27,569 nt of DNA from Candidatus Undinarchaeales archaeon (GTDB taxonomy: Archaea > SpSt-1190 > JASMDC01): the NCBI GenBank assembly GCA_030753015.1, contig JASMDC010000045.1, positions 1 through 27,569 of the forward strand, in the 5' to 3' direction. Positions within the stretch are counted from its first letter, which is position 1, and the number at the start of each line of letters is the position of its first letter. Below are positions 223 to 27,568 of the stretch, one piece after another. Both the position numbers and the translations under genes were made by a program. The notes under the pieces are model-generated. The model searched no databases. It saw only the letters and a list, made by a program, of their open reading frames with translations, and was not told where the DNA came from.

Positions 223-264
223 GTCTTTATTGGATGAAGTGGTATTGCAGTGTTTAATACAATA

Positions 265-345
265 GGGGGCTGGTGTGCCGGTACTCGTCCGGAAAGTACC
301 TTCCGGGCCCGTCCCTACCAACTCGGAAGGGGATGTCCCGCCGAA
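265..345. mobile_element. Candidate left-end palindromic region of the tnpB element
   Basis: Overlapping inverted repeats upstream of tnpB: GGTACT(280-285)/AGTACC(295-300), CCGGAA(289-294)/TTCCGG(301-306) and CCTTCCG(299-305)/CGGAAGG(324-330). IS200/IS605 ends carry subterminal hairpins. The exact element end is not determined. Confidence 0.4.
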
Positions 346-384
346 ACAAAAAAAGAGTTAAACCTGCAGCGCCTTGTTTCGTTC

Positions 385-1773
385 ATGGTGCGGTGGGCGC
401 TAGTGCACCCTCCCTATGGGGAGGTGTTCGGCCCTGTGTCGCGGACAGACCACAGTGAGATGCCCCTCGGGCTCGCGTACATCGCCGCCGTGCTACAGAC
501 TCAAGGGCACGAGGTCTACATCGTCGACGCCATGGGCCTCAATCTTTCCATGGACAATGTGCTCGCTCTCCTCGAGGCCCTAGGGCCTGACGTGGTCGGG
601 GCCACCTGTCCCACACCACTGGTCCCCTGGGTGCAAGCACTCTTCGACGAGGTGCGCCAACGGCTCCCTGACGCTCTCCGTGTGTGCGGCGGGCCCCATC
701 CCACAGCACGGCCCGAAGACCTCCTCCCCCACGTCCACGCCTGTGTGATCGGTGAGGCCGAGGACACGGTGATCGATGTTTCCCGCTGGGCAGAGGGCGA
801 ACTCCGACCCGCAAGCATCCCCGGGCTCTCCGTGCTCCGCGGTGGCCGTGCGGTGTCGACCGGCCCCCGTGCCCTGGTAGATCCATTGGACAGGCTCCCG
901 TTCCCTGCCCGCCACCTATTCCCTTGCGATGCCTACTCTTTCGACTATCCAGGCGAGGACGAGACCTATGCCTCGGTGATGACATCCCGAGGCTGTCCCC
1001 ACGGATGCACGTTCTGTGCCACGTCCCTTACATTCGGCCGCAGGGTCAGGTACCGCTCCACCGACTCGGTGATGGACGAGCTCCGCCACCTTTCTCGTGA
1101 GGGAGTGGGTTTCGTGTTCTTCTTCGATGACACGTTCACCCTCGACACCGCCCGGACACGAGCCCTGTGCCGTCGCATCCGCGACTCCGGTCTCGGTCTG
1201 CGCTGGGCATGCCTTGCCCGGGCCGACCGACTCGACAGCGATACCCTCTCTGTCATGCACGATGCAGGGTGCGTCGAGGTCCAGGTGGGCGTGGAATCGG
1301 GAGACCAGCGTGTGCTCGACACGATCGGAAAAGGAGTGAAAGTTGACCAGCTCCGTCATGCGTTCCGCAACCTCCGGGAGTCGGGCATCCGTTCCAAGGG
1401 CTTTTTCATCTACGGCCTTCCCGGAGAGACCCCCGAGTCCGCCAGGCGAACGACCGAGCTTGCGCTCGAGCTGGATCCGGACTACGCCTACTTCGGTGTG
1501 TTCGTCCCGTTCCCCGGAACGGCCAGCTTCTCCCAGTGCGCCGACAACCTTCTCTCCAGCGACTGGTCGGACTTCTGCTTCTTCAAGGAGCCCGTCGTCG
1601 TCATGGACGACATCTCTCCAGAGGAGGTGGAAGCGGCCCGTCGCGATGCAGTCCGCCGTTTCTACTTCCGTCCCGGCAAGTTGCTCGCACATATCCCCAC
1701 CTTTCTCGCAAGTCCCCGCCGCGCGCTCACTGCGGCCGAGGCGGCCGTGGCTTTGGGATGGCCGGGCAGGTAA
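385..1773 (+). CDS. Cobalamin-binding-domain radical SAM protein (class B methyltransferase-like)
   Basis: PLGLAYIAA, GGPHPT and IGEAE B12-binding-domain motifs; SRGCPHGCTFC (CxxxCxxC); DDTF; GVESG; GLPGET. Start moved from 250 to ATG 385 because a TATA-like GTTAAA lies at ~357-362 and the family N-terminus begins here. Confidence 0.92.
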   Translation: MVRWALVHPPYGEVFGPVSRTDHSEMPLGLAYIAAVLQTQGHEVYIVDAMGLNLSMDNVLALLEALGPDVVGATCPTPLVPWVQALFDEVRQRLPDALRVCGGPHPTARPEDLLPHVHACVIGEAEDTVIDVSRWAEGELRPASIPGLSVLRGGRAVSTGPRALVDPLDRLPFPARHLFPCDAYSFDYPGEDETYASVMTSRGCPHGCTFCATSLTFGRRVRYRSTDSVMDELRHLSREGVGFVFFFDDTFTLDTARTRALCRRIRDSGLGLRWACLARADRLDSDTLSVMHDAGCVEVQVGVESGDQRVLDTIGKGVKVDQLRHAFRNLRESGIRSKGFFIYGLPGETPESARRTTELALELDPDYAYFGVFVPFPGTASFSQCADNLLSSDWSDFCFFKEPVVVMDDISPEEVEAARRDAVRRFYFRPGKLLAHIPTFLASPRRALTAAEAAVALGWPGR

Positions 1774-3576: not shown

Positions 3577-3630
3577 ACGGGCTCCCGCTGGCCAAAAGCT
3601 ATTTAAAAAACCATGCAGCGCTCAGAACCG

Positions 3631-5322
3631 ATGGCGGTGCTCGGGCTATGTGACGGCCACGATTCCGGTGCCGCTGTGTTCATCGACGGCAAGGTCGCTG
3701 CAGCGTGTAACGAGGAGCGCCTCACACGCGAGAAGTTCCAGACGGGGTTCCCGCGCAACTCCATCCTCGAGTGCCTCCGAACGGCAGATCTCGCTCCCGG
3801 GGACGTCCGTCATGCGATCCTTGCATCGCACATGACCCCGTCGCTCCCCCTCCGTCTATCTCAACGTACCTATAAGGCACAGCGGAAGGACCTGTCCGCC
3901 TTTGGACTAACCATGGACCTCTACCGCAGCTACCAAGTGCTCTCAACGAAGCTGCCGGGCATACGCTCCATCGAGAGTACCGGTGCCGCGGCCGTGGTGC
4001 GCCGCAGGCTCGCGGGGCTCGACATCCAAGCCCCCTTGGACATGGTCGACCACCACGCGGCCCATGCCGCGGCCGCCTACCACACCGCCGGTCTGGACGA
4101 GGTCCTGGTCATCACCATGGACCACATGGGCGACGGTCTCTCGGCCAGCGTGTCCGTCGGGTCCGGGGGTCATCTCGAGCGCATCCACACCGCCGATGCC
4201 GGCCACGGTGTCGGAGGCTACTACTCCGAGTTCACCGAGCTCTTGAAGTTCCGGCCCGGACGGCACGAGGGCAAGGTCGTCGGACTGGCGGCAAAGGGCA
4301 ATCCCGCCACGGTCCTGAGCGAGATGCGCGAGGTGCTCACCTACAGCGACGGCCAGTTCAACGTGATCAACAACCTCAAGCGTTCCCGCCCCGGCCTGTT
4401 CGAGCTGTTCCAGAGGACGGACCGGGCAGACGTGGCGGCCGCCGTGCAGACGGTGCTCGAGGAGTGCGTGTGCGCCTTCGTCTCCGACTGGGCACGACGA
4501 CGTAACCTGCCGCACCTCGCCCTTGCGGGCGGGCTCTTCGCCAACGTCAAGCTCAACCAGCGGCTCCACGAGCTCGACTGTGTCGAATCAGTGTACGTCC
4601 ACCCGCACATGGGCGACGGAGGGCTGGGTTTCGGTGCCGCGGCATCGTTCGCCTGCAAGGACACGGCCCCCACGACCATGACGTCGGCGTACCTCGGGCC
4701 CAGGTACGGGGAGGAGGAGATGGAGCAAGCGCTCAAGGAGGCCAAGCTCGAATACAAGCGGGAGCGGGACATCGATCGGATGGTGGGGCTCCTGCTGGCC
4801 GACGAACGGGTCGTCGCCCGGTACACGGGACGGATGGAGTACGGGCCCCGCGCTCTTGGGAACCGCAGCATCCTCTACTCGGCGAGCGACATCTCAGTGA
4901 ACGACTGGCTAAATGAAAAGCTCAAGCGCAGCGAGTTCATGCCGTTCGCCCCCTCGACCCTGGTGGAGGAGGCGCACAAGTGCTATGAAGGCATGAAGGG
5001 TGCCGAGGACGCCGCCCGGTTCATGACCATCACATTCAACTGCACCGAGTGGATGAGAGAGACCTGCCCTGGCGTGGTCCACGTGGACGGGACGGCCCGT
5101 CCCCAGCTCGTCCATTCTGACGTATCGCCATCCTACCACCGCGTGATCAGCACCTATTTCAAGGCCACGGGCGTCCCAACGATCCTCAACACATCGTTCA
5201 ACATGCACGAGGAGCCCATCGTGGCGACACCGGAGGACGCCGTGCGCGGGTTCGTGCGCGCGGGGCTCGACAATCTCGCCCTGGGACCGTTCCTCGCACG
5301 GGGGGTCGAGCGAGATGGCTGA
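3631..5322 (+). CDS. Carbamoyltransferase, NodU/CmcH/TobZ family
   Basis: GHDSGAA, NEERLTREK, HHAAHAAAAY, EGKVVGLA, LAGGLFANVKLN, HMGDGG, EYGPRALGNRS, FMPFAP, HVDGTARPQ and LNTSFNMHEEP. TATA-like TTTAAAAA at ~3602 favours ATG 3631 over 3613. Confidence 0.96.
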   Translation: MAVLGLCDGHDSGAAVFIDGKVAAACNEERLTREKFQTGFPRNSILECLRTADLAPGDVRHAILASHMTPSLPLRLSQRTYKAQRKDLSAFGLTMDLYRSYQVLSTKLPGIRSIESTGAAAVVRRRLAGLDIQAPLDMVDHHAAHAAAAYHTAGLDEVLVITMDHMGDGLSASVSVGSGGHLERIHTADAGHGVGGYYSEFTELLKFRPGRHEGKVVGLAAKGNPATVLSEMREVLTYSDGQFNVINNLKRSRPGLFELFQRTDRADVAAAVQTVLEECVCAFVSDWARRRNLPHLALAGGLFANVKLNQRLHELDCVESVYVHPHMGDGGLGFGAAASFACKDTAPTTMTSAYLGPRYGEEEMEQALKEAKLEYKRERDIDRMVGLLLADERVVARYTGRMEYGPRALGNRSILYSASDISVNDWLNEKLKRSEFMPFAPSTLVEEAHKCYEGMKGAEDAARFMTITFNCTEWMRETCPGVVHVDGTARPQLVHSDVSPSYHRVISTYFKATGVPTILNTSFNMHEEPIVATPEDAVRGFVRAGLDNLALGPFLARGVERDG

Positions 5323-6766
5323 CGTCATCCTAGTCCAGCCAAAGGCCGGCGGGTATTCAGAGACCGTCCAGCGTCCCATGCTACCGCTCGCCCTCCTGGC
5401 CGCTGCACGCCGGATCGTGGGAACCCGGTCGGTACGCATCATCGATATGCGGGTGGACGACAACTGGCGTGGGCGTCTGGAGACCATCCTTTCCACCGAG
5501 CCCGTGTGCGTGGGCATCACGTCCATCACCGGGAGCCAGCTCAGGTCGGCCGTGAAGGCGGCCAGCTTGGTGCGTGAGCAGGGTGACGTGCCCATCGTGT
5601 GGGGTGGCGTGCACGCAAGCCTACTGCCCGACCAGACGCTCGCCAGCGGGCTTGCCGATGTTGTCGTTATCGGGGACGGGGATGAGACGTTCCCCCGGCT
5701 CGTCGACGCCCTTGCAGAAGGGCGTGACCTGAGCAGGATCGACGGTATCGCGTTCAGGAAGGGCAAGCGCACCGTGCACACCAAACCTGCACCCTTCGTG
5801 GACCTGGACGAACAGCCCGACCTCCCGTACAACCTGGTCGATATCGAGGAGTACGTTCAGATGTACGACGGCAGGCGCACACTGGTGGTCCAGACGTCAC
5901 GCGGATGCCCCCACTCGTGCAGGTTCTGCGTGAATCCCTGCTACAACAGCTCCAAGTGGCGGGGCCAGAGCGCTGACCGGGTTCAGGATGTGTTCGCTTC
6001 GATGCGCGAACGTTTTGGTGTCGAGAACCTGTGGCTAGCGGACGATAACTTTTTCGTCGACATGTCACGAGCTCGCGCAATCGCACGGGGGCTGGTGGAG
6101 TCGGGCTCGGAGCTCACCTGGGAGGTCCCGGGCACGCATGCCACCTCTGTGCTGGCCATGCGCGAGGGCACCCTTGGCCTGATGCAGAACGCCGGATGCC
6201 GTCGCATGTACATCGGGGTGGAGTCCGGCTCGGACCGCGTGCTAAAAGCCATCGGCAAGACCATCACCGTCGACAAGGTGCTGAAGGCCAACAAGCTTTT
6301 AGCCGACACGGAGATCATCCCCACCTACAACTTCATCCTCGGGTTCCCCGGAGAGACCGGCGAGGAGGTCCAGGCCACCATCGATCTTGTGTTCCGCCTC
6401 CTTGACGAGAATCCCCAGGCCGAGGTGGCACCGCTGTACTGCTTCACCCCCTACCCCGGCACCGTCCTCTACGACGAGGCTGTGGAGGCCGGGTTCGAGC
6501 CACCCGGCGACCTCGATGGATGGGCCGACTTCGAGTGGAGCAGGCTCAACGTCCCGTGGCTCGACGAGGAGCAGCGCAGACGGCTTGAATCACTGTACTT
6601 CTACTCGCTCTTCCTTGACCGGAAGTACCGCCATGACCTGGACTCGCCCCAGCTGCAGGCGCTAGCGCGAATCTACTCGCCCGTCGCCCGGGCACGTGTG
6701 CGGAACATGTTCCTGGACGCGCCGCTCGAGCTGAAGCTGAAGCGGTGGCTGCTCGGCGGGCCGTGA
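5315..6766 (+). CDS. Cobalamin-binding-domain radical SAM protein, translationally coupled to the carbamoyltransferase
   Basis: WGGVHAS, GDGDET, TSRGCPHSCRFC, DDNFF, GVESGS, GFPGET and FTPYPGT. Overlaps the upstream stop by 8 nt. Confidence 0.93.
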   Translation: MADVILVQPKAGGYSETVQRPMLPLALLAAARRIVGTRSVRIIDMRVDDNWRGRLETILSTEPVCVGITSITGSQLRSAVKAASLVREQGDVPIVWGGVHASLLPDQTLASGLADVVVIGDGDETFPRLVDALAEGRDLSRIDGIAFRKGKRTVHTKPAPFVDLDEQPDLPYNLVDIEEYVQMYDGRRTLVVQTSRGCPHSCRFCVNPCYNSSKWRGQSADRVQDVFASMRERFGVENLWLADDNFFVDMSRARAIARGLVESGSELTWEVPGTHATSVLAMREGTLGLMQNAGCRRMYIGVESGSDRVLKAIGKTITVDKVLKANKLLADTEIIPTYNFILGFPGETGEEVQATIDLVFRLLDENPQAEVAPLYCFTPYPGTVLYDEAVEAGFEPPGDLDGWADFEWSRLNVPWLDEEQRRRLESLYFYSLFLDRKYRHDLDSPQLQALARIYSPVARARVRNMFLDAPLELKLKRWLLGGP

Positions 6767-7994: not shown

Positions 7995-9380
7995 CTAGAC
8001 TTGGGGTGTGCCCACTTCCGTGCTATTATCGGCCCGCAGGTCACGCTCGCGGTGGAAGTTGCTGGCCCACAGTGTGGGGAAGGTACCGTCGTCCACGGTG
8101 ATCTCCCCGCCGATGCAGAACTTGGAGGCTTGGGCGTCATAGGTGTACGGATCGCACACCGAGCCGAAGGCCAGGATCAGGGAGCGTGTGGACATCGTTG
8201 CGCCAGTGAACCGTTCGCCGTACACGATGCGGTGGAGCGTGGTCGAGATCGCGTCACGGAGCAACGGCCATGCCCGTGGCCGGAGCAGGTGGGGGAGCAT
8301 GGACAGCACCAGGAACGGTGTGGCCAGCGAGCTGCCCTTGACACGGCGGTCCTTGTACACCTCGAGCGCAGGCTGGATGGCCGCAAGGTCGATGAGCTCG
8401 CCCACCATGCGGAACCCGTCCTTGGCGTTGGTGTCACGCAGCACCAGATAGTAGTGGTTGAACAGGCACCGGTGCATGCGCAGGATGTCGTAGAAGGCGA
8501 TGAGCGCGCGCTGGAAGTTCAGTACGTCCTGTCGGGAGAACCGTCCGTCGAAGCGCTCGATGAGCACGTCCATGAGGTCCTCGGGCGTGACCTTGAGGTC
8601 CACGTCGACACCTGCCTTGCCCAGGTATGAATAGGATTTGAAGAGTACTGCGCGCACGTTCGGCCGCTTGACCGCTTCCTCGAAGATATCACCCACCTGG
8701 TCGAGGTTCAGGTCGCGGACGTGGGTGGTCTCGAGCACGGTTGCCACGCCTGCCTCCTGGAGGACGTCCATGGCCTTCCGCCTGTTGTCGGCCATCGGTG
8801 CACCCCTGAGCACTAGAGCGCCCTTGTCATCGTACCCGTCGAACTGCATGTGGACTACCTCGAGCCCGGCTTTCAGGAGCCCGTCGAGGTAGTGAGGGTC
8901 CTTGAGCTTGATACCGTTCGTGTAGAGGGCCGGGATGTTGCCGGTGCGGCGGATTAGCCTGATGATGTTCATCAGGTCGTCGCGCATGGTCGCTTCGCCT
9001 CCCCACAGCCCGATCTTGAAGTTCTTGAAGTCCTTGATGGTCCTCTCGATCTCTTCCAGGGTGGGCTCCCGCTTGGGTGCGTTGGCGTCCGTGAGGCAGA
9101 TGGGGCAGTTGAGGTTGCAGCGCAGGGTCATGTAGTAGTTGTAGTAGTTGAGGATGCGCTCGGGGCCCTCGCGTCCGGGGGGGAAGAGGATGGGAAAATA
9201 GTAGTCGGAGAGCTCCTTGTAGTAGGTGGAATCGCGGGAGAGCAACCCCTTGGCCTCGCCATGGTCGGGGCACTCTTTTACCTGGTAGACCTTGTCATCC
9301 TCCTCGATTATCTGGACGGGAAGGTCCTTCATGCACGTGGGACAGAAGCCTCGCGTCTCGCGTAGCACGGTCCCGGGCAT
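7995..9380 (-). CDS. Radical SAM protein of the tetraether-synthase (Tes/MJ0619)-like group, divergent
   Basis: N-terminal TRGFCPTC...IIEEDDKVYQVKECPDHG metal-binding module; TLRCNLNCPIC; GGEATMRDDL; TNGIKL; MQFDG; C-terminal DPYTYD...C. TATA-like TTTATAA ~25 nt upstream. Confidence 0.85.
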   Translation of the reverse strand: MPGTVLRETRGFCPTCMKDLPVQIIEEDDKVYQVKECPDHGEAKGLLSRDSTYYKELSDYYFPILFPPGREGPERILNYYNYYMTLRCNLNCPICLTDANAPKREPTLEEIERTIKDFKNFKIGLWGGEATMRDDLMNIIRLIRRTGNIPALYTNGIKLKDPHYLDGLLKAGLEVVHMQFDGYDDKGALVLRGAPMADNRRKAMDVLQEAGVATVLETTHVRDLNLDQVGDIFEEAVKRPNVRAVLFKSYSYLGKAGVDVDLKVTPEDLMDVLIERFDGRFSRQDVLNFQRALIAFYDILRMHRCLFNHYYLVLRDTNAKDGFRMVGELIDLAAIQPALEVYKDRRVKGSSLATPFLVLSMLPHLLRPRAWPLLRDAISTTLHRIVYGERFTGATMSTRSLILAFGSVCDPYTYDAQASKFCIGGEITVDDGTFPTLWASNFHRERDLRADNSTEVGTPQV

Positions 9381-9448: not shown

Positions 9449-9973
9449 TCAGTCCTCGCGCCACACACGCATGCGACGCTTGTGGGCGATCTCGCTCAGC
9501 TCCTCGGACCGCTGCATGAACGGCTTGTACCGCGTGTAGGCCCGCACCAGTGGAGTCCCCCGCTCCACACCCCAGAACTCGTGGGCCTTGAGGGTGTTGC
9601 CGTTCATCACCTCGATGTGGTGCTTGTCGTTGATGGAATAGGAGTAGCTTGAGGTCTTCACGCTGGACCGACCGGGGGATATCTCGGTGCGTTCGAGCTC
9701 CACCGTCTTTGTAATACGCACCCGGTCGTGGGAGAATGTGTGGTCCTCGGTCTCCTGGTCGAGCTCTACCCGGTAGATGTTGCCCGTGGACACGGCCAGC
9801 TCGTCGTAGAGGTCGACGTCGCGCATGTCGATGACGCTGTAGTGGGTGTCGTCCTCCCGTTTCAGCACGAAGGCGTAGTTGTGGGCATGGAGGTCCTCCA
9901 CCGAATCGATGCGGTCGAGGTCGTTGCAGTCCATGAAATCGCGAAGGTCATGCGTGAGGTAGATATCGTCCAT
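9449..9973 (-). CDS. Hypothetical protein
   Basis: SD GGGTGA before ATG 9973; TATA-like TTTAAA at ~10008-10013; coding-like codon bias. No family recognised. Confidence 0.78.
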   Translation of the reverse strand: MDDIYLTHDLRDFMDCNDLDRIDSVEDLHAHNYAFVLKREDDTHYSVIDMRDVDLYDELAVSTGNIYRVELDQETEDHTFSHDRVRITKTVELERTEISPGRSSVKTSSYSYSINDKHHIEVMNGNTLKAHEFWGVERGTPLVRAYTRYKPFMQRSEELSEIAHKRRMRVWRED

Positions 9974-10053
9974 TGTCTCACCCAAGGGCCTCGCGCCCGG
10001 AAGGTGGTTTAAATATCTGGGTTTTGGGGTGCCCGACGGACGGGCCGCGGCCC

Positions 10054-11541
10054 CTAGGCCTCGATGTCTTCTACGAGGTCAAGGTACAGGGCCCCGGTCC
10101 AGGTCATGTACCGGGCCCCCAGGGGATCGCCGGCCTCGTGCTTCCCCTCGCTCTGGGGCGCATAGTACTCGGCAAAGGAGGGTCCAGTGTCCGAGGTACC
10201 GTCGTAGACCGGGACCTTCTCGTCCACCTTTGACCACCCGATCGCGGCGAAGACCGAGTCCCACAGCCAGCCATGGCAGTACTGATCATGCGCTGGCGTA
10301 GTGAACTCCTCTCCGAAGCTGTTGTACTCCATGACACCAGCGGCCTGCTTCTTTACAGCGTCCCGGTCCGCGTACCCCTCCGCGATCATCCCCACGGTCC
10401 GCTCACGGACCTCGTCTGCCAGGACGGGACTGTAGTGGTCCAGGCCCTTGGCGAGCATCCAGTTGGTGACCGGCCAGCTAGGACCCTTCCAGTAGCGCGC
10501 GTTATCGAACCGCGGTGCGTTCATGGGTGTGGAGGGGATGGGTGTGCCGTCCACCGGCCAGAACTCGTCCGGGTCAGTCAGGTGCGCAAGGAGGCGTCCT
10601 GCCTGCTCAGGGCTTGCTACGCCGCCATAGAGCGGCATGAGCGAGCGGATGGTCGGGTGGTCCAGGTGCTTTCCCGCCTTCATGTCGTAGCTGAAGAACA
10701 GGCCCGCGTCCTCGTCCCACAACTTCGTCCGGATGGCCTCCCCGATGCGGTCCGCCTCTGAGTCGCTAGCACCCGCCTGCTCCCGATAGTAAGCGGCTTG
10801 TGCCTCGTGCTCCTTGCGGTGGATGGGATCCATGTCCGCCAGGTTGTCGTACTTCAGGGCGAGCTCGCCGGCGATGAGCCCCATGGAGCGGACGGACTCG
10901 GCGAACACCGTGTTCACCAGCACGTCCTGGACCGCGAAGGGTGACTCCTTGTAGATGCGCTCCTGGTCGAAGCCCAGCTGGTCCATCTTGCCCACGAGAT
11001 AGAAATAGCAGTCGTAGGCTTCCTTGGACGGTCGCTCGTCAGGGTCCACGTTGTCCTGGTCACGGCGTGTGAACTTGTCGATGTCAACATCCCCGCTCTC
11101 CAAGGCCTTCAGGATGCGCGGGAAGGTGTCGTCGAAATCGGGCGCGTTGTCGGTACCCGACGCCCATGGATGGGCTATGAAGATAAGATGCTCGCCGTCG
11201 GGATCGCGCTCGCGCAGGAGGAAATCGTGGTACTTCTGGACCTTGGGGAACCACTCCTCGATCTTGTCCAGAATCGCGTCCTTGTGCTCGGCGTTCTGGT
11301 AGACCTCCCAGATGCCAGCGGCGACAATGGGTGGTTGCGTGATGCCCGAGGTGTCCACGTCGGGATTGCCCGAGATCTGCCGGGTAACACCCCATTCCTC
11401 TGCGTCCGGCCCATAACCGGTCTCACCAGGTGTGAAGCGGATATGGGGCAGCATACCGTTGGCCCACTGGGAGCGGAGGATGGACTCCATCTCGTTTACG
11501 GCACGGCGCTCCCCGTAATTGAAGTCCGCAGAAGTACCCAT
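10054..11541 (-). CDS. GH63-like glucosylglycerate/mannosylglycerate hydrolase (alpha/alpha)6 enzyme with rearranged segment order
   Basis: QWANGMLPHIRF, TSGITQPP, HPWASGTDNAP, YWKGPSWPVTNW and FAEYY...TWTGAL. The normally N-terminal YxHxWxWDSxFxAIG motif lies near the C-terminus. Confidence 0.88.
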   Translation of the reverse strand: MGTSADFNYGERRAVNEMESILRSQWANGMLPHIRFTPGETGYGPDAEEWGVTRQISGNPDVDTSGITQPPIVAAGIWEVYQNAEHKDAILDKIEEWFPKVQKYHDFLLRERDPDGEHLIFIAHPWASGTDNAPDFDDTFPRILKALESGDVDIDKFTRRDQDNVDPDERPSKEAYDCYFYLVGKMDQLGFDQERIYKESPFAVQDVLVNTVFAESVRSMGLIAGELALKYDNLADMDPIHRKEHEAQAAYYREQAGASDSEADRIGEAIRTKLWDEDAGLFFSYDMKAGKHLDHPTIRSLMPLYGGVASPEQAGRLLAHLTDPDEFWPVDGTPIPSTPMNAPRFDNARYWKGPSWPVTNWMLAKGLDHYSPVLADEVRERTVGMIAEGYADRDAVKKQAAGVMEYNSFGEEFTTPAHDQYCHGWLWDSVFAAIGWSKVDEKVPVYDGTSDTGPSFAEYYAPQSEGKHEAGDPLGARYMTWTGALYLDLVEDIEA

Positions 11542-11721
11542 CCAGTCAATACATGCGGGACAAGTGACTTTTAAGTGTTACTGTCGCCAGGTGACGAAAA
11601 TCGTAGAGCCCTGGACGTCGTTCGGGAGTGAACGCTGACAGGAGGGCGTGGATTAGGTGTGCAAAAGGGAATGTTTAAAAGGCGGACCTCGGGCGCGGAG
11701 AGTCTAGAAAAGGTGAAAATG

Positions 11722-16094: not shown

Positions 16095-17573
16095 TCAGGA
16101 GCACTTGGCATCGTATCCCAGACGGTAGGCCATCTCCTCGGCGCCCATGAGGTCCGTGTTCAAGTTGAAGAACCTCTTGCGTGCTATCGGCCGATAGAGC
16201 CGATAGAGGATGCGGATGACCGGGTCCCCGATGAAGTCCAGCTTGTCATCGGTGAACGAGGAGAGCATGTAAAGGCGTCTGAGCAGCGCTGCGCGCTCCG
16301 GCGTCACCCATGGGAATGAGTGGTCGAGACCATCCTGCAGCACCGCATAAGCGTCGTACCGCGCCCATCCCTCCAGCGAGTCGGGAGGGACCAGACCGTG
16401 TCGCTTAGCCTCGGCCAGATAGGTCGAGTTCGGGTAGGGGATCACAGGATTGAGGGCGGTGGTCGAGGCGCGCGGGTTCTCGTCCAAGAGGGTGTGCATG
16501 AGCCGGACGGTGTCAGCAAGCTCTTCCTCGGTCTCGCCCGGGAACGCGGTCATGAAGCAGTACCGTGGATGGAACGAGTAACGGGCGATCCGCCGGTTAA
16601 AGGGGACCACGGTATCGATCCTGAGGCCCTTCCTGATCGAGTCAGCGATCCGTTGGGAGCCGGTCTCCACGCCGATGACGACGTCGGCCATCCCGGCCCG
16701 CGCCACCAAGGCCAGCTCGTCATCGGTGAACCGGGACATACCGGTGACATGGGCCTCTGCCTCCCAGAGGATGTCCAGTCCGCGGTCCACGAAACCCTGA
16801 CAGATATCGAGCATGCGCCGTCGATCGACGAAGGCGTTCTGCTCGGCGAACCACACGAATCCCAGGTTGAACCGCTCCACCGCGGAGGTCACCAGGTCCA
16901 GGGCCCGCGGCGCTGACATGCCGCGCCATCTTCCGTTGCACTCCACGGGCGAGAAGCAGTAGGTGCACTGGTAGGGACAACCACGCGAGGTGCAGAGGCT
17001 TATACAGCGTCGGTTCCTGCGTCGGATGATGTACTTCTCGATGTCCACCAGGTGGAAGGGCGGATCGGGGATATCGTCGAGGTCCGTGTGGGGACGGCGC
17101 GGGTTCACGTGCACCGCGTCACCCTCCGCGTACACGATGCCCTTCACCGAGGACAGGGGCCTACCCGTCTCCAGAGCGTTCACGAGGTCCTCCAAGGTGT
17201 ACTCGCCATCGCCCACGACGGCCACGTCCACCAACGGATGGCTGACGGTGCCTTCAGGATCGAGAGTGGGATGGGGACCACCCCACACGACAGGGATCTC
17301 GGGGTCCTCTTCCTTCACCACCGCTGACGCGGCGAGCGCACCCGTGATCTGGACGCCTGTCATGGCCGTGATGCCCACGCAAGTGGGCCCCGAGCGCACA
17401 GCGGCACGCAGCTCGCCCTCCCAGTCACGGGTGGTGCGCTGGTCGAAGAGGACGACCTGGTGGTCCTGGGCCACCACCGAGGCGGCCGCGAGGAGGGAGA
17501 TGGGGAGCGTGGAGCGGTCGAGCAGCTCGTCGAGCATGGCGATATGCGGCTGGACAAGCACGATGTCGCTCAT
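16095..17573 (-). CDS. Cobalamin-binding-domain radical SAM protein, paralog of 5315-6766
   Basis: MSDIVLVQP, WGGPHPT, GDGEYT, TSRGCPYQCTYC, GVETGS, FPGET and PYP. SD GGAGG before ATG 17573. Confidence 0.93.
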   Translation of the reverse strand: MSDIVLVQPHIAMLDELLDRSTLPISLLAAASVVAQDHQVVLFDQRTTRDWEGELRAAVRSGPTCVGITAMTGVQITGALAASAVVKEEDPEIPVVWGGPHPTLDPEGTVSHPLVDVAVVGDGEYTLEDLVNALETGRPLSSVKGIVYAEGDAVHVNPRRPHTDLDDIPDPPFHLVDIEKYIIRRRNRRCISLCTSRGCPYQCTYCFSPVECNGRWRGMSAPRALDLVTSAVERFNLGFVWFAEQNAFVDRRRMLDICQGFVDRGLDILWEAEAHVTGMSRFTDDELALVARAGMADVVIGVETGSQRIADSIRKGLRIDTVVPFNRRIARYSFHPRYCFMTAFPGETEEELADTVRLMHTLLDENPRASTTALNPVIPYPNSTYLAEAKRHGLVPPDSLEGWARYDAYAVLQDGLDHSFPWVTPERAALLRRLYMLSSFTDDKLDFIGDPVIRILYRLYRPIARKRFFNLNTDLMGAEEMAYRLGYDAKCS

Positions 17574-17618
17574 AGGATCATCCTCCCGCTCCACCTGAGA
17601 TGATGGGTGTTAATATAC

Positions 17619-22063: not shown

Positions 22064-23225
22064 GTACGGACTTCTGGCCCTGACCAGGGACCGGCCCCTG
22101 CTCTTCCTGGCACTGGTGCTGCCCATCGCCACCATGATGCTGGGCGGGATCGTGTTCTCCCACGGTCTTGCGAACGTGCCCCTGTGCATCACTAACGAGG
22201 ATGTTGGATCGTACGGAGCCAAGCTCGTGACCGAGTTCGACCGCTCGGCCCGTTTCGACATGACCGAGACCGACCGCGCAACGTGCGACGCGATGCTGCG
22301 TGATGGTACCGTGGCCGCCACGGTCGCTGTGGAGGCGAACCACACCGGTCGCCTGTCCGCAGAGGGTAGGGTCGATGCGACGGTAACTGTAGACAACTCC
22401 CTTCCCTTCCTGGGATGGCTCACCATGCTCGAGTGCCGGAAGGTGCTGTACGCCCACCTCCTGGACACGTTCGCCAACGATCCGCCACCGGCCCTCCTCC
22501 ACATGCGTGAGAACGATCCGTTCCTCAGCTGGGTGTACGGGCAGGTGTCCGCCTTCATCACGCCCGAGCGGGTGTACTTCATAATCGGTGCACTGCTGGG
22601 GACACAGGAGCGCCTGGTCCACCTCGATCCCGTGTTCCTGCACTACTACCTGCCCGGCCTCCTAACCATCGCGGTTGTGTTCACTGCAACGACCCTCGCG
22701 TCCATCCTCGTCGTGCGGGACCGCGAGGACGGTAGCCTCACACGGCTCCTGGCAAGCCCCCTCACACCGGGGGAGTACCTGGCGTCGCGCATGGCCGTGG
22801 CCCTTCTCATGTCGCTCGTCCAGATCACTATCATACTTGCAGTGCTCGGCTGGTACCTGGGTAGCAAGCTCTCCCTGCTATCGCTTTTCGCAGTGCTCGC
22901 AGTGCTCGCTCTGGCCTCCTGCGCTCTGGGCATACTCGTGTCCACCATGGCAGGCAACGCCCTCCACGCGCTGGAGGTCGCAGTGCTCATCATAGTAGTC
23001 CAGATCCTCCTTGGCTCCATGGTGTTCCCGAACGTCATCATGCCCGACGCTGTACGCTCGATCGAGCCTCTGCTCCCCGCCACCCACTCCGTCGCCGCCC
23101 TGCGAGAGGTCATCCTCTGGAAGGAGCCTGCGGGCGCACAGGGGCCTATGAGCACGCTCGTGGTCCTGGCAGCGTTGTGGTGGGGGGCCGCCTGGATGCT
23201 GCTGACGTACCGCGAACAGCGCTAG
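22035..23225 (+). CDS. ABC-2 type transporter permease
   Basis: N-terminal TM, extracytoplasmic domain, VRDREDGSLTRLLASPL motif, multiple TMs and LPATHSVAALR. Confidence 0.93.
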   Translation: MSARTYWATRYGLLALTRDRPLLFLALVLPIATMMLGGIVFSHGLANVPLCITNEDVGSYGAKLVTEFDRSARFDMTETDRATCDAMLRDGTVAATVAVEANHTGRLSAEGRVDATVTVDNSLPFLGWLTMLECRKVLYAHLLDTFANDPPPALLHMRENDPFLSWVYGQVSAFITPERVYFIIGALLGTQERLVHLDPVFLHYYLPGLLTIAVVFTATTLASILVVRDREDGSLTRLLASPLTPGEYLASRMAVALLMSLVQITIILAVLGWYLGSKLSLLSLFAVLAVLALASCALGILVSTMAGNALHALEVAVLIIVVQILLGSMVFPNVIMPDAVRSIEPLLPATHSVAALREVILWKEPAGAQGPMSTLVVLAALWWGAAWMLLTYREQR

Positions 23226-26200
23226 AAATCCCACTGGTTGTCGTCGCTCACGTCAGAGTAGTCCATCGCTTGCTGGTTCCATGCGGGCTCCTGCTCGCCC
23301 CATCCCTGGCTCTGCTCTTGTTCGCCCCAGGACTGGCCCTGTCCCTGGTCGCCCCAGCCTGCCTGGGAGGATGCACCCTCCCAGCCACCGCTCTGGGCAT
23401 AGCCTTCTCCAGTGTATCCCTCGCTCCCGCCCTGCTCGTAGTATCCCTCGTACGGATCGGGCTGCAACTCGGTGACCCACCGGCTCGCCAGCACGACGGC
23501 AAGGAGCACGACACCCATGACGACGGAACCGGCTGTAGCGTACAACCTGAGCATGTTCCCGGTCTCGACGTCAGGGAGCGTTCTGATGAGAGAGGCGGAC
23601 TGTTCGACGAGCTGCATCGCCCGTTCAACGTTACCCTCTGCCATCATTCGTTCAGCCTCCTCCAGCAGGCCCTTTGAACGCTCGAACACGACCGCGCTCT
23701 CACCTGAGAGCGAGAGCTTCTCGATGGCGGCGAGCTGGTTGATAGCTACCTCGTGGGCGAGCTCCAGCCGCTTCGTGTCGACCTTCACGGTAGACTCAAC
23801 GGAATAGGGTAGCTTCTCCTTGTCGATCCAAGTGAGTTTGTTCCCCGAGCGCTCATCAGGCTCCGGATCTGGTTCCACCGTATCGAAGGTGGCAATCGCC
23901 GAGTCCTCGAACTTTATCGTCGTTGTGCGCCCGAGGATCGGACCGCTGAGCAGGAATACCTTGTTCGACTCCTCCATGAGGTCCGCCAGCTCAACTGTTG
24001 CCGATAACCTTTGTGCATAGATGGAGAGCGTTCCGGACAGCGGACGTGGTATATGATAGGGAGCTTCCATGTTAACGGCAAGAGTGAGATTGCCGATGAG
24101 GGGATCTATGTTCGCACCCTTAGCGCCGAACTTGAACTCCTGGCCCGATGACCGCGGTCCCGTGGAGAAACTGAGATAGGTCATATCGATTCTGAGAGCG
24201 CTGGTCACGATATCCGAGATCAGTACGCAGCGTGCTGTGCATTCGGTACCGGTAGCGAGCTCAGCTAACATGGATGAGACTCCTGAATCCCGATAGCGTC
24301 GTCGCTGCACCTTGCTCTCTTCGCACGATTTCAGGCAGGACCGACGGAGGGATGCTCCCACGGACGACACGTCATAGTCCACATGCTCGAAGGAGCCGAT
24401 GCCACGGACCTCTACCGTATCGTTCACTATGATGAAGAAGGAGGTGCTCCCCTCACGGAGTATCGGGATGCCGGATGGTGCGTCCGCAAGCTTCATGATG
24501 GGTTCGATCACCTTGTCCAGGTTCTGCGCCTCTAATGTGAGAGAAGCACGAACGGTACCTACCTCCTGTACGGTGTAGAAGTCGAGCTTGAACTCCAGCG
24601 CCTGAAGGGCCGTTGCCAGCTCTTCGCGCACTTCGGCCTTGGCCTCGGACACGAAGATGTCCGGCCAGTTGATAAGGTCCACTTCAATGTACCCATCCTT
24701 GGCGATGTACCGCTCGACCTGGGTGGCCACCCCCTGTCGCAGGAACTGCTTGTTCATGTCCTCGAGCATCATCTCGGCAGGTGCGCCGGGGATCTCAGGG
24801 GAGGCGAGCTCCACGGTCAGGGTTCCCTCCTTTACTTCTAATGCAAGGGTGATATCTGGCATCTCACCCGGGTTCGCGAACGCGGTGGCGCCTGTGATGT
24901 CCACGCTCGACCGGGTGGTCGTAGCGTTCACGTCGAACCAGAACGAAGGGAAAGGGAAGAACATCCGTCGGGCGTATGGATCGTCAGGGATTAGATTGAG
25001 AGAGGCGTTGAACTCGTAGCTCATCCTCTTTCCGTCCGAGCTGTAGAACAGGTCGGCCCTCCCGATCCGCTCCTCCAGGGGTGCCCAGCCATCGGACTCG
25101 ATAGCGAAATCGCTCTGGAGGTCCGCTGTCACGTCGAAGCTGAAGCCCTTGGGTGAGTTGATCGGGCCCGTCATATTGAGCAGCCCCGTGTTGTCCGTGC
25201 GGACGAGCAGGTCACAGGTCTCGATGTATTCTTTCTCGTTACGGGGTGGCCGGCAGTCGTCAGGGCAGTTGTACAGGTCCTCGAACCGGTGGTCACACAG
25301 TCCATCACCGCACTCCTCCCTGCGCATGAGCTCCTTGTCAATGCTCGTTGTTTCTTTCCGCATCCGTCCAGTTGCCGTTGTAGGCCCTGCATCGACACAG
25401 TAGTAACGCTCGCGGTTACAGATCTTGTCCTCATGGCAGTCAGCGTTCGACCTGCAGCAGGTCTTTCCCTGGAGGCAGCACACGGTGCCGCAATTGCTGG
25501 AGAAGCACTCTTCATTTGAGTAGCAACGCTGGCCGTTGGGTCGCTGGACGACCTCCTCTAGCGGTGGGGGCGTAGGTGTGGCAAGACGCTGGAATCCTAT
25601 ACCATTGATTCTATCCAGTGCTTTGAGCATTTCGGAATCTGGACGCGGAGGACCTATCTCGTTCCTGAGGAGCTCAATGACACTTCTAGTTGACGTGATC
25701 CCGTGCGTGATAGCTGCTATCTGATCATCGATCGTGACCATGAACTTGGGTGTCTTGCTGATCCCGGCCTTTTCAGCATCGATGACGAGTCGTGCGACCT
25801 CGAACTCCTTCGATCCGCTCTCAAAACAACGGATGAAGGTGTCCGCATCTGGCACTACCAGAAGTGCTAAATCTGCAATTGCGGCGACATGGTCAATTTC
25901 GATTTTTCCAGCGAGCCCCTGCAGCAATTCGTCGCCCTGACCTTGATCCTTGGCACATAGGTACGCCTCGGTTGCCTTGAGCGAGAGCGGATCAGCGGCA
26001 TCCGGGAGCGGCTTGAACTCGTACGTGATGACGTTCCTGTACATGATGCGTGTGATTCTGATCTCCTTTAGTGTCTCCCCGATACGCAACGGGTCCATGT
26101 ACTCGACGATAGTGACCTTCTTCCCGGGCGGTTGAGGGGTCGGTTTTCCGATGTCGGAGACCTGCGGTGTGGAAGGGGGACGCGTGGGCTCAGGTAAAAG

Positions 26201-27568
26201 GTCCGGTATCTCCAGGTCATCTTCCGGGATATCGGGGATCTCAAGGTCATCATCGGAAATATCGGGCACCTCGAGAGCGTCGTCGATTATTTCTAGATCC
26301 TCGTCATCGATCACCGCATCCTCGACGCAATAGTGCCGGTCGCTGCAAACGTTACCTGGCGGGCAGTCGGTGGTCGAGAAGCAGCACTCCATCCCTTCAA
26401 CACAGCATGCCCCATTGTCACAGTTACCGCTATGGCACTGGTCGCTGGCGGTACAGGGGGAGCCATTGGAGCGTTTGGAAGGCGCCTCGGACGGCACGGG
26501 TGTTGGTTCGGGCGTGCTCTCCGGACGGGCAGTGGGTACTGCTGTCGGTTCAGGTGTGGGTACTGCTGTGGGCTCGGGTGTGGTCTCGATACTATCATCC
26601 TCAAAGATCAACCAGAGCTCTGCTGCATCCCCGTAGTGCTGTGTGTCATAATCCACTATAAGGGTAAGATCGCCAATTTCTCTTGTGATCAGTTCATCCG
26701 GATTCGAATAGATATACTCATAAATCGGGGAAAAATCATATTCCCACCCGGACGGTGTAACGATGAAGTAGTAGGCGACTCTCTTATCCGATCTAACTTT
26801 CGTGAGAGTGATGTTGTATCCACTATGCTCGATAGTTTCCCCCAGATTGATAAGGACCTTCTCACCAGGAACCGGTGGGCGATTGCCGCACTCACCATCG
26901 TAAACCAGCCATAGCTCGGCCGTGCTGAGAGAGTTCCACGTATCGGGTTTAATGAGAAGTGTCAGCTCGCTGATTACCTTCTTGACCTCATTCTCTTCGA
27001 TTGAATGGACGTCGTCGTAGTTCGGCGAGAACATATGCGTTTGCCCGGACGGATCCACGATCTCGAAGAAGGCCGTGTTCGAACCGCTCGCGACATCATT
27101 GAGCGTGATCTTGTACCCACAGAAATCCGTGTTCCTTCCTTTGTGGATCACCTTCTTCTGCCCGGGAACGGGTGTGGGTCTCGGTGTGGGTACGGGAGTC
27201 GGTACGGGTATGACATCCGGAGGTTCTATAGAAGCCTCCTCCCCGCACGCCTCCACATTGGTGAGCGTACCATAGATAGCACCGAACACCGGCCAGCCGT
27301 CAGAATACCCATAGAGGACCGTGACCTCGTTGATGCCCGAGACGTCCGCCATCAGCTCACAGTCCTTCGATGCTTGGTTCTCCGCAAGCTCACAAGATGT
27401 CAGCGATTCCTGGACCCATTTTCCAGCAAGAGATGCACTATTGCGGGAGCAGACCTCGCGGTCCCCATTGTCGCAAGCGATAGTGCCGTCGAACACCGCG
27501 AGAGTGGTCGGTTTCCGGTCGAAGGGTGCGGGATTGTTGGAGATGCGCCCCTTGAACGTGAACGTGTC
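23222..27568 (-). CDS. Very large mosaic surface protein (>1440 aa, 5' end outside the window)
   Basis: The frame stays open to the window edge (DTFTFKGRISNN...). It contains tandem ~95-aa beta domains, PT linkers, two Cys-rich modules, a DsbA-like domain, a CGDGLC...CPDDC motif, a C-terminal TM and a Q/G/W-rich tail. Confidence 0.88.
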   Translation of the reverse strand, partial: DTFTFKGRISNNPAPFDRKPTTLAVFDGTIACDNGDREVCSRNSASLAGKWVQESLTSCELAENQASKDCELMADVSGINEVTVLYGYSDGWPVFGAIYGTLTNVEACGEEASIEPPDVIPVPTPVPTPRPTPVPGQKKVIHKGRNTDFCGYKITLNDVASGSNTAFFEIVDPSGQTHMFSPNYDDVHSIEENEVKKVISELTLLIKPDTWNSLSTAELWLVYDGECGNRPPVPGEKVLINLGETIEHSGYNITLTKVRSDKRVAYYFIVTPSGWEYDFSPIYEYIYSNPDELITREIGDLTLIVDYDTQHYGDAAELWLIFEDDSIETTPEPTAVPTPEPTAVPTARPESTPEPTPVPSEAPSKRSNGSPCTASDQCHSGNCDNGACCVEGMECCFSTTDCPPGNVCSDRHYCVEDAVIDDEDLEIIDDALEVPDISDDDLEIPDIPEDDLEIPDLLPEPTRPPSTPQVSDIGKPTPQPPGKKVTIVEYMDPLRIGETLKEIRITRIMYRNVITYEFKPLPDAADPLSLKATEAYLCAKDQGQGDELLQGLAGKIEIDHVAAIADLALLVVPDADTFIRCFESGSKEFEVARLVIDAEKAGISKTPKFMVTIDDQIAAITHGITSTRSVIELLRNEIGPPRPDSEMLKALDRINGIGFQRLATPTPPPLEEVVQRPNGQRCYSNEECFSSNCGTVCCLQGKTCCRSNADCHEDKICNRERYYCVDAGPTTATGRMRKETTSIDKELMRREECGDGLCDHRFEDLYNCPDDCRPPRNEKEYIETCDLLVRTDNTGLLNMTGPINSPKGFSFDVTADLQSDFAIESDGWAPLEERIGRADLFYSSDGKRMSYEFNASLNLIPDDPYARRMFFPFPSFWFDVNATTTRSSVDITGATAFANPGEMPDITLALEVKEGTLTVELASPEIPGAPAEMMLEDMNKQFLRQGVATQVERYIAKDGYIEVDLINWPDIFVSEAKAEVREELATALQALEFKLDFYTVQEVGTVRASLTLEAQNLDKVIEPIMKLADAPSGIPILREGSTSFFIIVNDTVEVRGIGSFEHVDYDVSSVGASLRRSCLKSCEESKVQRRRYRDSGVSSMLAELATGTECTARCVLISDIVTSALRIDMTYLSFSTGPRSSGQEFKFGAKGANIDPLIGNLTLAVNMEAPYHIPRPLSGTLSIYAQRLSATVELADLMEESNKVFLLSGPILGRTTTIKFEDSAIATFDTVEPDPEPDERSGNKLTWIDKEKLPYSVESTVKVDTKRLELAHEVAINQLAAIEKLSLSGESAVVFERSKGLLEEAERMMAEGNVERAMQLVEQSASLIRTLPDVETGNMLRLYATAGSVVMGVVLLAVVLASRWVTELQPDPYEGYYEQGGSEGYTGEGYAQSGGWEGASSQAGWGDQGQGQSWGEQEQSQGWGEQEPAWNQQAMDYSDVSDDNQWDF

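Follow-up and report, generated by a model that had tools for sequence, protein, structure and literature searches.

Two glycoside hydrolases of solved structure are the closest described relatives of the protein studied here: TtMgH, the mannosylglycerate hydrolase of Thermus thermophilus HB8 (TTHA0978; 2Z07, 4WVA-4WVC), and MhGgH, the glucosylglycerate hydrolase of Mycolicibacterium hassiacum (5OHC), both of family GH63. According to PMC6608630, helices alpha2/4/6/8/10/12 of MhGgH form the inner and alpha1/3/5/7/9/11 the outer layer of its barrel. The same paper describes an inverting mechanism with Asp182 as the general acid and Glu419 as the general base, the D43A, D182A and E419A variants being inactive; Tyr36, Trp40, Tyr88, Arg216 and Tyr375 hold the glycerate, and Asn23 contacts loop E. 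In this work we analysed a stretch of 27,569 nucleotides (the window) from a metagenome-assembled genome (MAG) of an archaeon, Candidatus Undinarchaeales (GCA_030753015.1, contig JASMDC010000045.1). A gene at 10054-11541 on the minus strand of this window encodes a hydrolase of the same kind, here named P0001, in which the parts of the barrel follow each other in a different order.

Natural reordering of a glycosidase barrel is known from the GH70 glucansucrases, which are circularly permuted (beta/alpha)8 barrels relative to GH13, with the fold and the catalytic machinery kept. P0001 is comparable in these respects but has an (alpha/alpha)6 barrel and a non-cyclic order, with alpha12 remaining last. 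To our knowledge, enzyme folds permuted in nature almost always show a cyclic order, since only rotations result from duplication, fusion and truncation. Searches of the full-text literature, which did not extend to subscription-only journals, brought up no description of a permutation in this family or in (alpha/alpha)6 glycosidases. We consider it likely that P0001 is a complete and functional MGH1-like (alpha/alpha)6 hydrolase with the order alpha3...alpha11-alpha1-alpha2-alpha12, and that this order has a single origin in a clade mainly made up of Chloroflexota. The hairpin alpha1-loop A-alpha2, bearing four substrate-binding residues (Tyr, Trp, Trp, Asp), would have been transferred as a unit to the loop that joins alpha11 and the strand of the catalytic Glu, with a short linker leading in and a long linker of variable length leading out. 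The broader claim is that this is an undescribed, non-cyclic (alpha/alpha)6 permutation in which a hairpin of one outer and one inner helix, with a third of the sugar-binding residues, was displaced from the N-terminus into the last outer-to-inner loop, the active site stayed intact, and the result was kept across Chloroflexota, other bacteria and a marine archaeal genus; we hold this claim, too, to be probable, with a smaller degree of assurance.

The open reading frame (ORF) of P0001 comprises 495 codons and a stop, and its frame is intact in the ORF list and the translation. The protein begins with MGTSADFNYGERRAVNEMESILRSQWANGMLPHI, the start given in the initial annotation of this DNA. 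Upstream of the ATG only 12 further codons are open (open frame of 507 amino acids), and therefore no N-terminal module is hidden there; the neighbouring gene upstream lies on the other strand and starts 117 bases away. The Pfam model PF22422 (MGH1-like glycoside hydrolase domain) matched P0001 with 222.9 bits (cut-off 27, E 1.2e-65), yet the colinear match ran only from residue 11 to 387 (profile positions 21-329 of 356) and thus was not colinear over the full length. The trehalase model of Pfam matched weakly, and PF03200, the C-terminal domain of GH63, scored 16.3 bits, below its cut-off of 22.4 (E 0.0043). P0001 is an MGH1-like/GH63-type (alpha/alpha)6 hydrolase; the label GH63, which it had already received in the initial annotation, stands by relation to TtMgH and MhGgH and is not backed by PF03200. 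Sources that name the rearranged proteins call them 'trehalase family glycosidase' or 'hypothetical protein'.

A profile of the canonical order was built from 118 normal-order relatives (436 positions) and matched P0001 in pieces: residues 9-254 corresponded to profile positions 52-290, residues 255-388 to 269-400, residues 392-442 to 6-55 (6e-13) and residues 455-492 to 402-433 (1e-4). A phmmer search of all sequences in the Protein Data Bank gave TTHA0978/TtMgH (2z07, E 4.3e-56) and MhGgH (5ohc, E 2.2e-37), both in out-of-order stretches. Residues 397-440 aligned with residues 5-47 of the TtMgH chain (independent E-value 1.5e-6), 24-223 with 62-251 and 267-385 with 269-385. For MhGgH, residues 399-437 aligned with 17-54, 12-223 with 59-271, 274-363 with 299-390 and 425-489 with 388-446. 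The chain order read from these matches, in MhGgH numbering, is alpha3...alpha11, alpha1, alpha2, the Glu-bearing strand and alpha12. Since alpha12 (profile 402-433) stays C-terminal after the moved module, the rearrangement is, as judged from the sequence, a non-cyclic segment transposition and not a circular permutation. These results agree with the initial annotation, which had recognised an N-terminal hairpin encoded between the YWKGPSWP (alpha10-alpha11) region and the FAEYY...alpha12 region, had called it a transposition since the last helix remains terminal, and had expected out-of-order alignment to GgH and MgH relatives with the segment matching the N-terminus of the family. The position it had given to the segment AVKK...AAIGW was also correct (residues 395-436, window 10234-10359).

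The same three-part, out-of-order match to the canonical profile was obtained for all 65 rearranged proteins tested, and in each of them alpha12 came last, after the moved module, a pattern that does not correspond to a cyclic rotation. A profile of the N-terminal module alone (positions 1-58) matched 65 of 65 at ≤1.3e-10. The canonical loop-A/alpha2 consensus yTvPAp.LYPHQWlWDS has its counterpart in FTTPAHDQYCHGWLWDS in the rearranged proteins, and the alpha1 pattern A..[VL][LM]..N has kept its spacing.

On the minus strand of the window, the core in canonical order occupies 10378-11517 (residues 9-388) and holds alpha3-alpha11, the cap regions and Asp131; it corresponds to canonical profile positions 52-400 and, in the structural match, to TtMgH 44-420. 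Junction 1, the linker EGYAD (residues 388-392, 10366-10380), connects alpha11 to the transposed alpha1, the model having by DSSP one helix at 372-387 and the next at 393-406; this linker is short in all 18 aligned homologues and has 5 residues in P0001. The transposed N-terminal module follows at 10216-10368 (residues 392-442; canonical profile 6-55, TtMgH 5-47) with alpha1, loop A and alpha2, including Asn407, Tyr421, Trp425, Trp427 and Asp428. Junction 2, at 10177-10233, is a return linker of 19 residues (437-455) by which alpha2 is joined to the FAEYY strand, modelled without regular structure, and according to the gap pattern of the alignment it is markedly longer in L007 and L023 than in P0001. 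The C-terminal segment (residues 455-495, 10057-10179; canonical profile 402-433, 5ohc 388-446) is in its canonical place and carries FAEYY with Glu458, loop E (Met479, Trp481) and alpha12. TtMgH, the best sequence match among solved structures, shares the catalytic Asp/Glu motifs and the module motif FT.PAH..Y...WLWDS with P0001, but has alpha1-alpha2 at residues 5-47, whereas P0001 has them at 397-440 after alpha11; P0001 also exceeds TtMgH by some 75 residues, having longer central helices (207-273) and the 19-residue return linker.

The rearranged order is a natural rewiring common to a clade and not an assembly error. Among 336 fetched proteins 139 were rearranged and 186 canonical, with 11 fragments not classed; 120 of the rearranged proteins are of full length (447-531 amino acids). 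The order thus appears to define a clade of at least 139 sequences, mostly from Chloroflexota MAGs, so that the rewiring proposed in the initial annotation is real, not as a one-off in this gene but as the architecture of a clade. The C-terminal fragment, comprising alpha1, alpha2, the return linker, the Glu strand and alpha12, was turned into a profile and searched against proteins of 248-2000 amino acids; 114 of the 120 proteins listed matched at E ≤2.9e-21 with a coverage of at least 81%. The remaining six, all canonical, reach E-values of 1e-13 at best; coverage is 37-52% in five and 96% in the sixth, P0336, which has 29% identity. A word search confined to residues 372-495 gave 7 proteins and no further information. 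In species-representative genomes about 20 of the best 80 loci are rearranged, mostly in Anaerolineae and Chloroflexia MAGs, together with one Deferrimicrobiaceae MAG and one Campylobacterales MAG. The second genome of the archaeal genus has a copy of 93% identity, likewise within an open frame of 507 codons, and no match to the rearranged gene was found in the genomes of the other 59 relatives searched (2 of 61 genomes positive, the window's own included).

Three other studies yielded contigs that match the window exactly and run across both junctions and the start, without differences, gaps or joints. Junction 1 is bridged by X11 record 2 and X12 record 5, and junction 2 by X11 record 1, X12 record 5 and X13 record 8, as well as by a contig from an RNA library (X20 record 12); the region of the start codon is covered by X11 record 4, X12 record 7 and X13 record 10. 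Continuity across the junctions and the existence of homologues of the same order, both named in the initial annotation as ways to check the rearrangement, hence speak in its favour. Identical DNA for the region 9900-11700 was present in metagenomes of 11 studies, in runs from marine, seawater and hydrothermal-vent sources. In one metatranscriptome run (X20) short contigs cover parts of the gene, which is no proof of transcription, as DNA can occur in such libraries.

An AlphaFold2 model of P0001, computed with 62 clade homologues, had a mean predicted local distance difference test score (pLDDT) of 96.1 and a predicted template modelling score of 0.95, with block means of 93-98 over residues 381-440. 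It contains alpha10 at 357-367, alpha11 at 372-387, the moved alpha1 at 393-406, the moved alpha2 at 426-436 and alpha12 at 480-494, and 12 barrel helices when the moved hairpin is counted. Using VIA-align, the model superposed on TtMgH (4wva_B) with a Z of 41.4 and an rmsd of 1.7 Å over 371 residues (model 7-491, chain 44-420), and on MhGgH (5ohz_B) with a Z of 38.5 over 384 residues (chain 53-446); Foldseek gave TM scores of 0.70/0.78 with 5ohz_A. The barrel also superposes on chains of E. coli YgjK (Z 25.2-25.8), and by its fold P0001 belongs to GH63 in the sense of CAZy. The sequential structural matches begin after the canonical alpha2, so alpha1-alpha2 alone are left without a sequential partner.

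Residues 388-495 were also modelled alone, with 17 homologous fragments; the best model had a pLDDT of 76.1 and the other four 42-54. This fragment model aligned with MhGgH 5ohc_A over 87 residues (3.1 Å, 37% identity, model 1-104, chain 4-446) and with TtMgH chains over 80-82 residues (3.1-3.6 Å, 39-40% identity, chain 2/3-420), the alignments starting at model residue 1-8 and chain residue 2-4. These alignments support, short of proof, an arrangement in which the moved hairpin and the C-terminal segment pack in the manner of the two canonical termini and their helices keep the canonical directions. In the full-length protein the hairpin would most likely lie in its usual slot between alpha12 and alpha3.

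Residues of MhGgH were transferred to P0001 through the 5ohc phmmer alignment, in which the chain index is the native number plus 2. Seventeen of the 18 substrate-contact residues of MhGgH listed in PMC6608630 are identical in P0001. Four of them lie in the moved hairpin, where Tyr36, Trp40, Trp42 and Asp43 of MhGgH correspond to Tyr421, Trp425, Trp427 and Asp428. His78, Tyr88, Gln115, Trp177 and Gly180 correspond to His33, Tyr43, Gln69, Trp126 and Gly129; Asp182, Arg216, Tyr222, Tyr375 and Trp376 to Asp131, Arg170, Tyr176, Tyr350 and Trp351; and Trp381, Glu419 and Trp436 to Trp356, Glu458 and Trp481. The sole difference is Met479 in place of Gln434. The counterpart of the general acid, Asp131, is encoded at 11149-11151 (minus strand) within the motif WASGTDN, and that of the general base, Glu458, at 10168-10170 (minus strand).

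Conservation was counted over the 120 full-length rearranged members. Thirteen of the 18 contact sites are invariant, including the Arg170/Tyr176 pair; Tyr421, Trp425, Trp427 and Asp428 of the hairpin, Asp131, Glu458 and Trp481 are among the residues found in 120/120. The catalytic Asp (GTDN) and Glu (AEYY) proposed in the initial annotation are therefore retained throughout. The Tyr88 and Gln115 sites are kept in 119 members each, the Trp376 site is Trp in 107, and at the His78 site 73 have Gln and 47 have His. At the Gln434 site all 120 have Met, versus Phe in 106 of 118 canonical neighbours. Asn407, the counterpart of Asn23 of MhGgH, is kept in 105. The changes from YPH to YCH and from WES to WAS, for which a possible shift in specificity had first been suggested, are present in P0001 but are not features of the clade: the position after Tyr421 is Q in 42, A in 22, C in 13 and R in 11 members, and WAS occurs in 19, whereas 100 have a Glu of the WES/WET type. 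With the hairpin in its slot the active site would be unchanged, and P0001 would catalyse inverting hydrolysis with Asp131 as the acid and Glu458 as the base. The residues holding the carboxylate of glycerate being conserved, the putative substrate that we propose is an alpha-glucoside or alpha-mannoside of small size whose aglycone is acidic, for example glycerate.

The phylogeny was analysed on the shared-order core only (345 columns, profile 56-400), the columns of the trait itself being left out; the trees are quick searches under a single-matrix model, with relatives picked by similarity to the query. A first tree comprised 62 rearranged and 60 canonical rows; a single branch, with a support of 100 in the Shimodaira-Hasegawa-like approximate likelihood ratio test (SH-aLRT), separates all rearranged proteins in it from the canonical ones. 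A second tree, of 33 rearranged, 65 canonical and 5 operon-adjacent canonical rows, was rooted on P0265, a canonical-order paralogue from the same genome, and again placed the rearranged proteins on one branch (SH-aLRT 98). On these alignments the rearranged order appears to have arisen once, one change of state being enough. P0265 (471 amino acids; L001:1438-2850(-), contig C106) shares PF22422 (1.4e-74) and the catalytic motifs (WESGWDN, EHY) with P0001, but has the normal helix order, 24% core identity to P0001 and a position far from the rearranged clade on the tree; both architectures are thus kept in one genome.

P0001 itself branches off early in the clade, with its exact place unresolved and a long terminal branch, and its best identity to any member outside the genus is 46%. 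The gene most likely reached the archaeal genus by horizontal transfer, which fits its confinement to this genus among the relatives searched. The window's genome and its one congener measure 3.6-3.85 Mb, and all 15 genomes searched from the same class 0.6-1.2 Mb.

How the order came about can only be sketched. As a speculative scenario, and the likeliest one to us, the 5' segment may have been duplicated into the loop between alpha11 and the catalytic Glu; at a following stage either copy of the module could have filled the slot, and the original N-terminal copy might then have been lost by a shift of the start codon. No intermediate with two copies of the module, and no fused or double-length form, was present among the 336 fetched proteins, and the C-terminal-fragment search gave no protein above 520 amino acids among the matches listed. 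Additional WxWD motifs in P0141, P0170 and P0248 were considered as second modules and rejected, for they lie about 20 residues after YWRGP, within alpha10. No relic of the N-terminal module was found upstream of 16 rearranged genes (best E 0.39) with a profile that finds the internal copy in 65/65 proteins. A recent tandem duplication in Anaerolineae was likewise rejected, because the canonical genes next to the rearranged ones group in a distant clade of their own (SH-aLRT 99) that is not sister to the rearranged clade. The branching inside that clade mirrors that of the rearranged partners, and congruent but distant clades therefore suggest an old partnership of two different enzymes and not a recent duplication.

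Several observations weigh against an intact barrel with the hairpin in its old place and a single origin of the order. Only one of five fragment models was confident (76 versus 42-54), the Z scores of the fragment model with GH63 chains (3.9-4.6) lie below the level that is trustworthy for helical matches, and other (alpha/alpha)6 enzymes match it as well or better (2okx_B, Z 6.0). The homology score of alpha1 alone is weak (mean 2.4 bits, versus -0.1 for reversed and -0.6 for shuffled segments), and the trees cover the relatives nearest the query, out of 3176 family hits. Moreover, outer helices are parallel to each other in a regular barrel, and five residues are few to connect two of them; such a linker between alpha11 and alpha1 is workable only where the canonical fold brings the end of the former near the start of the latter. 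Taken alone, helices 372-387 and 393-406 joined by such a linker suggest an antiparallel hairpin, and the full-model alignments, of which only the first and last aligned residues are given, leave the hairpin unaligned. Together with the weak alpha1 signal, this could indicate that the hairpin is homologous to alpha1-alpha2 and is not in the canonical slot or orientation, alpha1 lying antiparallel beside alpha11 or the hairpin forming a lid, with the barrel closed anew and the active site partly rebuilt. We regard this arrangement as improbable. The alignment of 80-87 of the 108 fragment residues to the canonical N- and C-termini, with 37-40% identity, requires alpha1 to have the canonical direction relative to alpha2 and alpha12; Asn407 is largely kept and the Tyr, Trp, Trp and Asp of the hairpin are invariant in the clade, and the core, with its alpha1/alpha2 slot empty, superposes at 1.7 Å. 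Barrel hairpins are also alike, and in the alignment of residues 425-489 with MhGgH 388-446, WLWDSVFAAIGW faces the alpha10 helix WLFSWCFARRGW, so that one might see in the segment an insertion derived from the internal repeat of the barrel and resembling alpha1-alpha2, in a protein that had lost its N-terminus. Such an insertion is very unlikely in view of the match to canonical profile 6-55 (6e-13), the recognition of all 65 proteins by the N-terminal-module profile, the correspondence of the loop-A/alpha2 motifs, the separate presence of alpha10 and alpha11 at 357-387 and the count of 12 helices with the hairpin. An artefact of assembly or gene calling, such as a chimeric contig or a frameshifted pseudogene, could be suspected from the source, a MAG of 117 contigs with an estimated contamination of 5%, but has a negligible probability against an intact 495-codon frame, the same order in 139 proteins from many assemblies and in the second genome of the genus, identical contigs of three other studies across both junctions, and the lack of an upstream module relic in the 16 genes searched.

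The substrate is less certain than the architecture. With fold and order as preferred here, P0001 could act on glucosylglycerol, another small alpha-glucoside or an imported oligosaccharide, or could be a transglycosidase; this has an appreciable chance of being true, although we think it the less likely case. Against a glucosyl- or mannosylglycerate-like substrate, the NCBIfam equivalog model of glucosylglycerate hydrolase, NF047898, gave 249.6 bits in 3 stretches, far from its cut-off of 550, and P0001 is by this model not to be counted as an orthologue of MhGgH. In the host genome no mannosyl-3-phosphoglycerate synthase was found, nor any glucosyl-3-phosphoglycerate synthase above the cut-off (66 versus 262 bits), so the substrate would come from outside or be a different one. 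None of the neighbours of P0001 in the window has a link to sugar metabolism; they are radical S-adenosylmethionine (radical-SAM)/B12 enzymes, a carbamoyltransferase, a metallophosphoesterase and an M50 peptidase. The pairing, in Anaerolineae, with a distant MGH1-like enzyme behind a CUT1-type ATP-binding cassette (ABC) importer suggests two specificities, and the clade differs from MhGgH by its constant Met at the Gln434 site and its frequent Gln at the His78 site. However, with Phe at the Gln434 site in most canonical neighbours, Met is no large departure; the Thermus enzyme presumably has Phe there as well. The five residues that hold glycerate in MhGgH according to PMC6608630 are kept in 119-120 of the 120 clade members.

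Here the non-cyclic order is well supported and conserved, the glycosidase fold has been studied in depth, and both close relatives of normal order and two solved structures are at hand for comparison, so that the effect of chain order on the folding and catalysis of the toroid can be tested directly. If the rearrangement is as we describe it, the toroid would tolerate a topology beyond the reach of simple duplication and truncation, and P0001 would offer protein engineers a natural template for re-threading such barrels. For annotation it is of practical concern that family profiles match the rearranged proteins in part, by which these may be taken for truncated enzymes.

Further context comes from other rearranged loci. 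In five of 18 rearranged loci, all from Anaerolineae (L009:3481-10636, L010:16-3116, L013:5667-10630, L014:3592-10636, L016:3250-10633), an operon-like row leads from sugar-type ABC importer genes to the rearranged gene, with a canonical MGH1-like gene immediately after it. Only L009 shows the importer's solute-binding protein, permeases and MalK-like ATPase together; subsets are present in the other four loci. In Chloroflexia (L017-L021) two-component regulator genes lie upstream in L017, L018, L019 and L021 (L017 and L019 having the response regulator alone); downstream of the rearranged gene, L017, L018 and L019 have a gene for an MFS transporter. Taken together, these contexts speak for small glycosides or compatible solutes being taken up and hydrolysed. 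The Anaerolineae operons and the presence of the gene in a marine archaeon in which the known glucosyl- and mannosylglycerate synthases were not found suggest that the small glycosides so used are made by other organisms. In the Deferrimicrobiaceae MAG (L008:3075-12310) the rearranged gene, whose ORF failed the motif filter, is located between an upstream gene for an MscS mechanosensitive channel and GT4, GT2 and glycogen-debranching-like genes, a neighbourhood that hints at an osmolyte or glucan context.

The host genome of P0001 has 3.85 Mb and an estimated completeness of 98.9%; a search of it for archaeal small-subunit rRNA gave no match. Within 17 kb the window contains three genes for B12-binding radical-SAM proteins, one for a radical-SAM protein with an HMPTM-type zinc ribbon and one for the carbamoyltransferase (250-1773(+), 5315-6766(+), 16095-17594(-), 7995-9380(-) and 3613-5322(+)), which may form a tailoring or biosynthetic cluster. 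An ORF of 1424 residues at 23222-27496(-), reaching the window edge, gave no Pfam match at E ≤0.001. An A/T-rich box, CTTAAAAG, is located at 11568-11575 on the minus strand, 27-34 nucleotides upstream of the ATG of P0001, and we take it to be a possible archaeal TATA box of a leaderless transcript. The host genome is archaeal, with eight matches to the TATA-binding protein domain in four genes.

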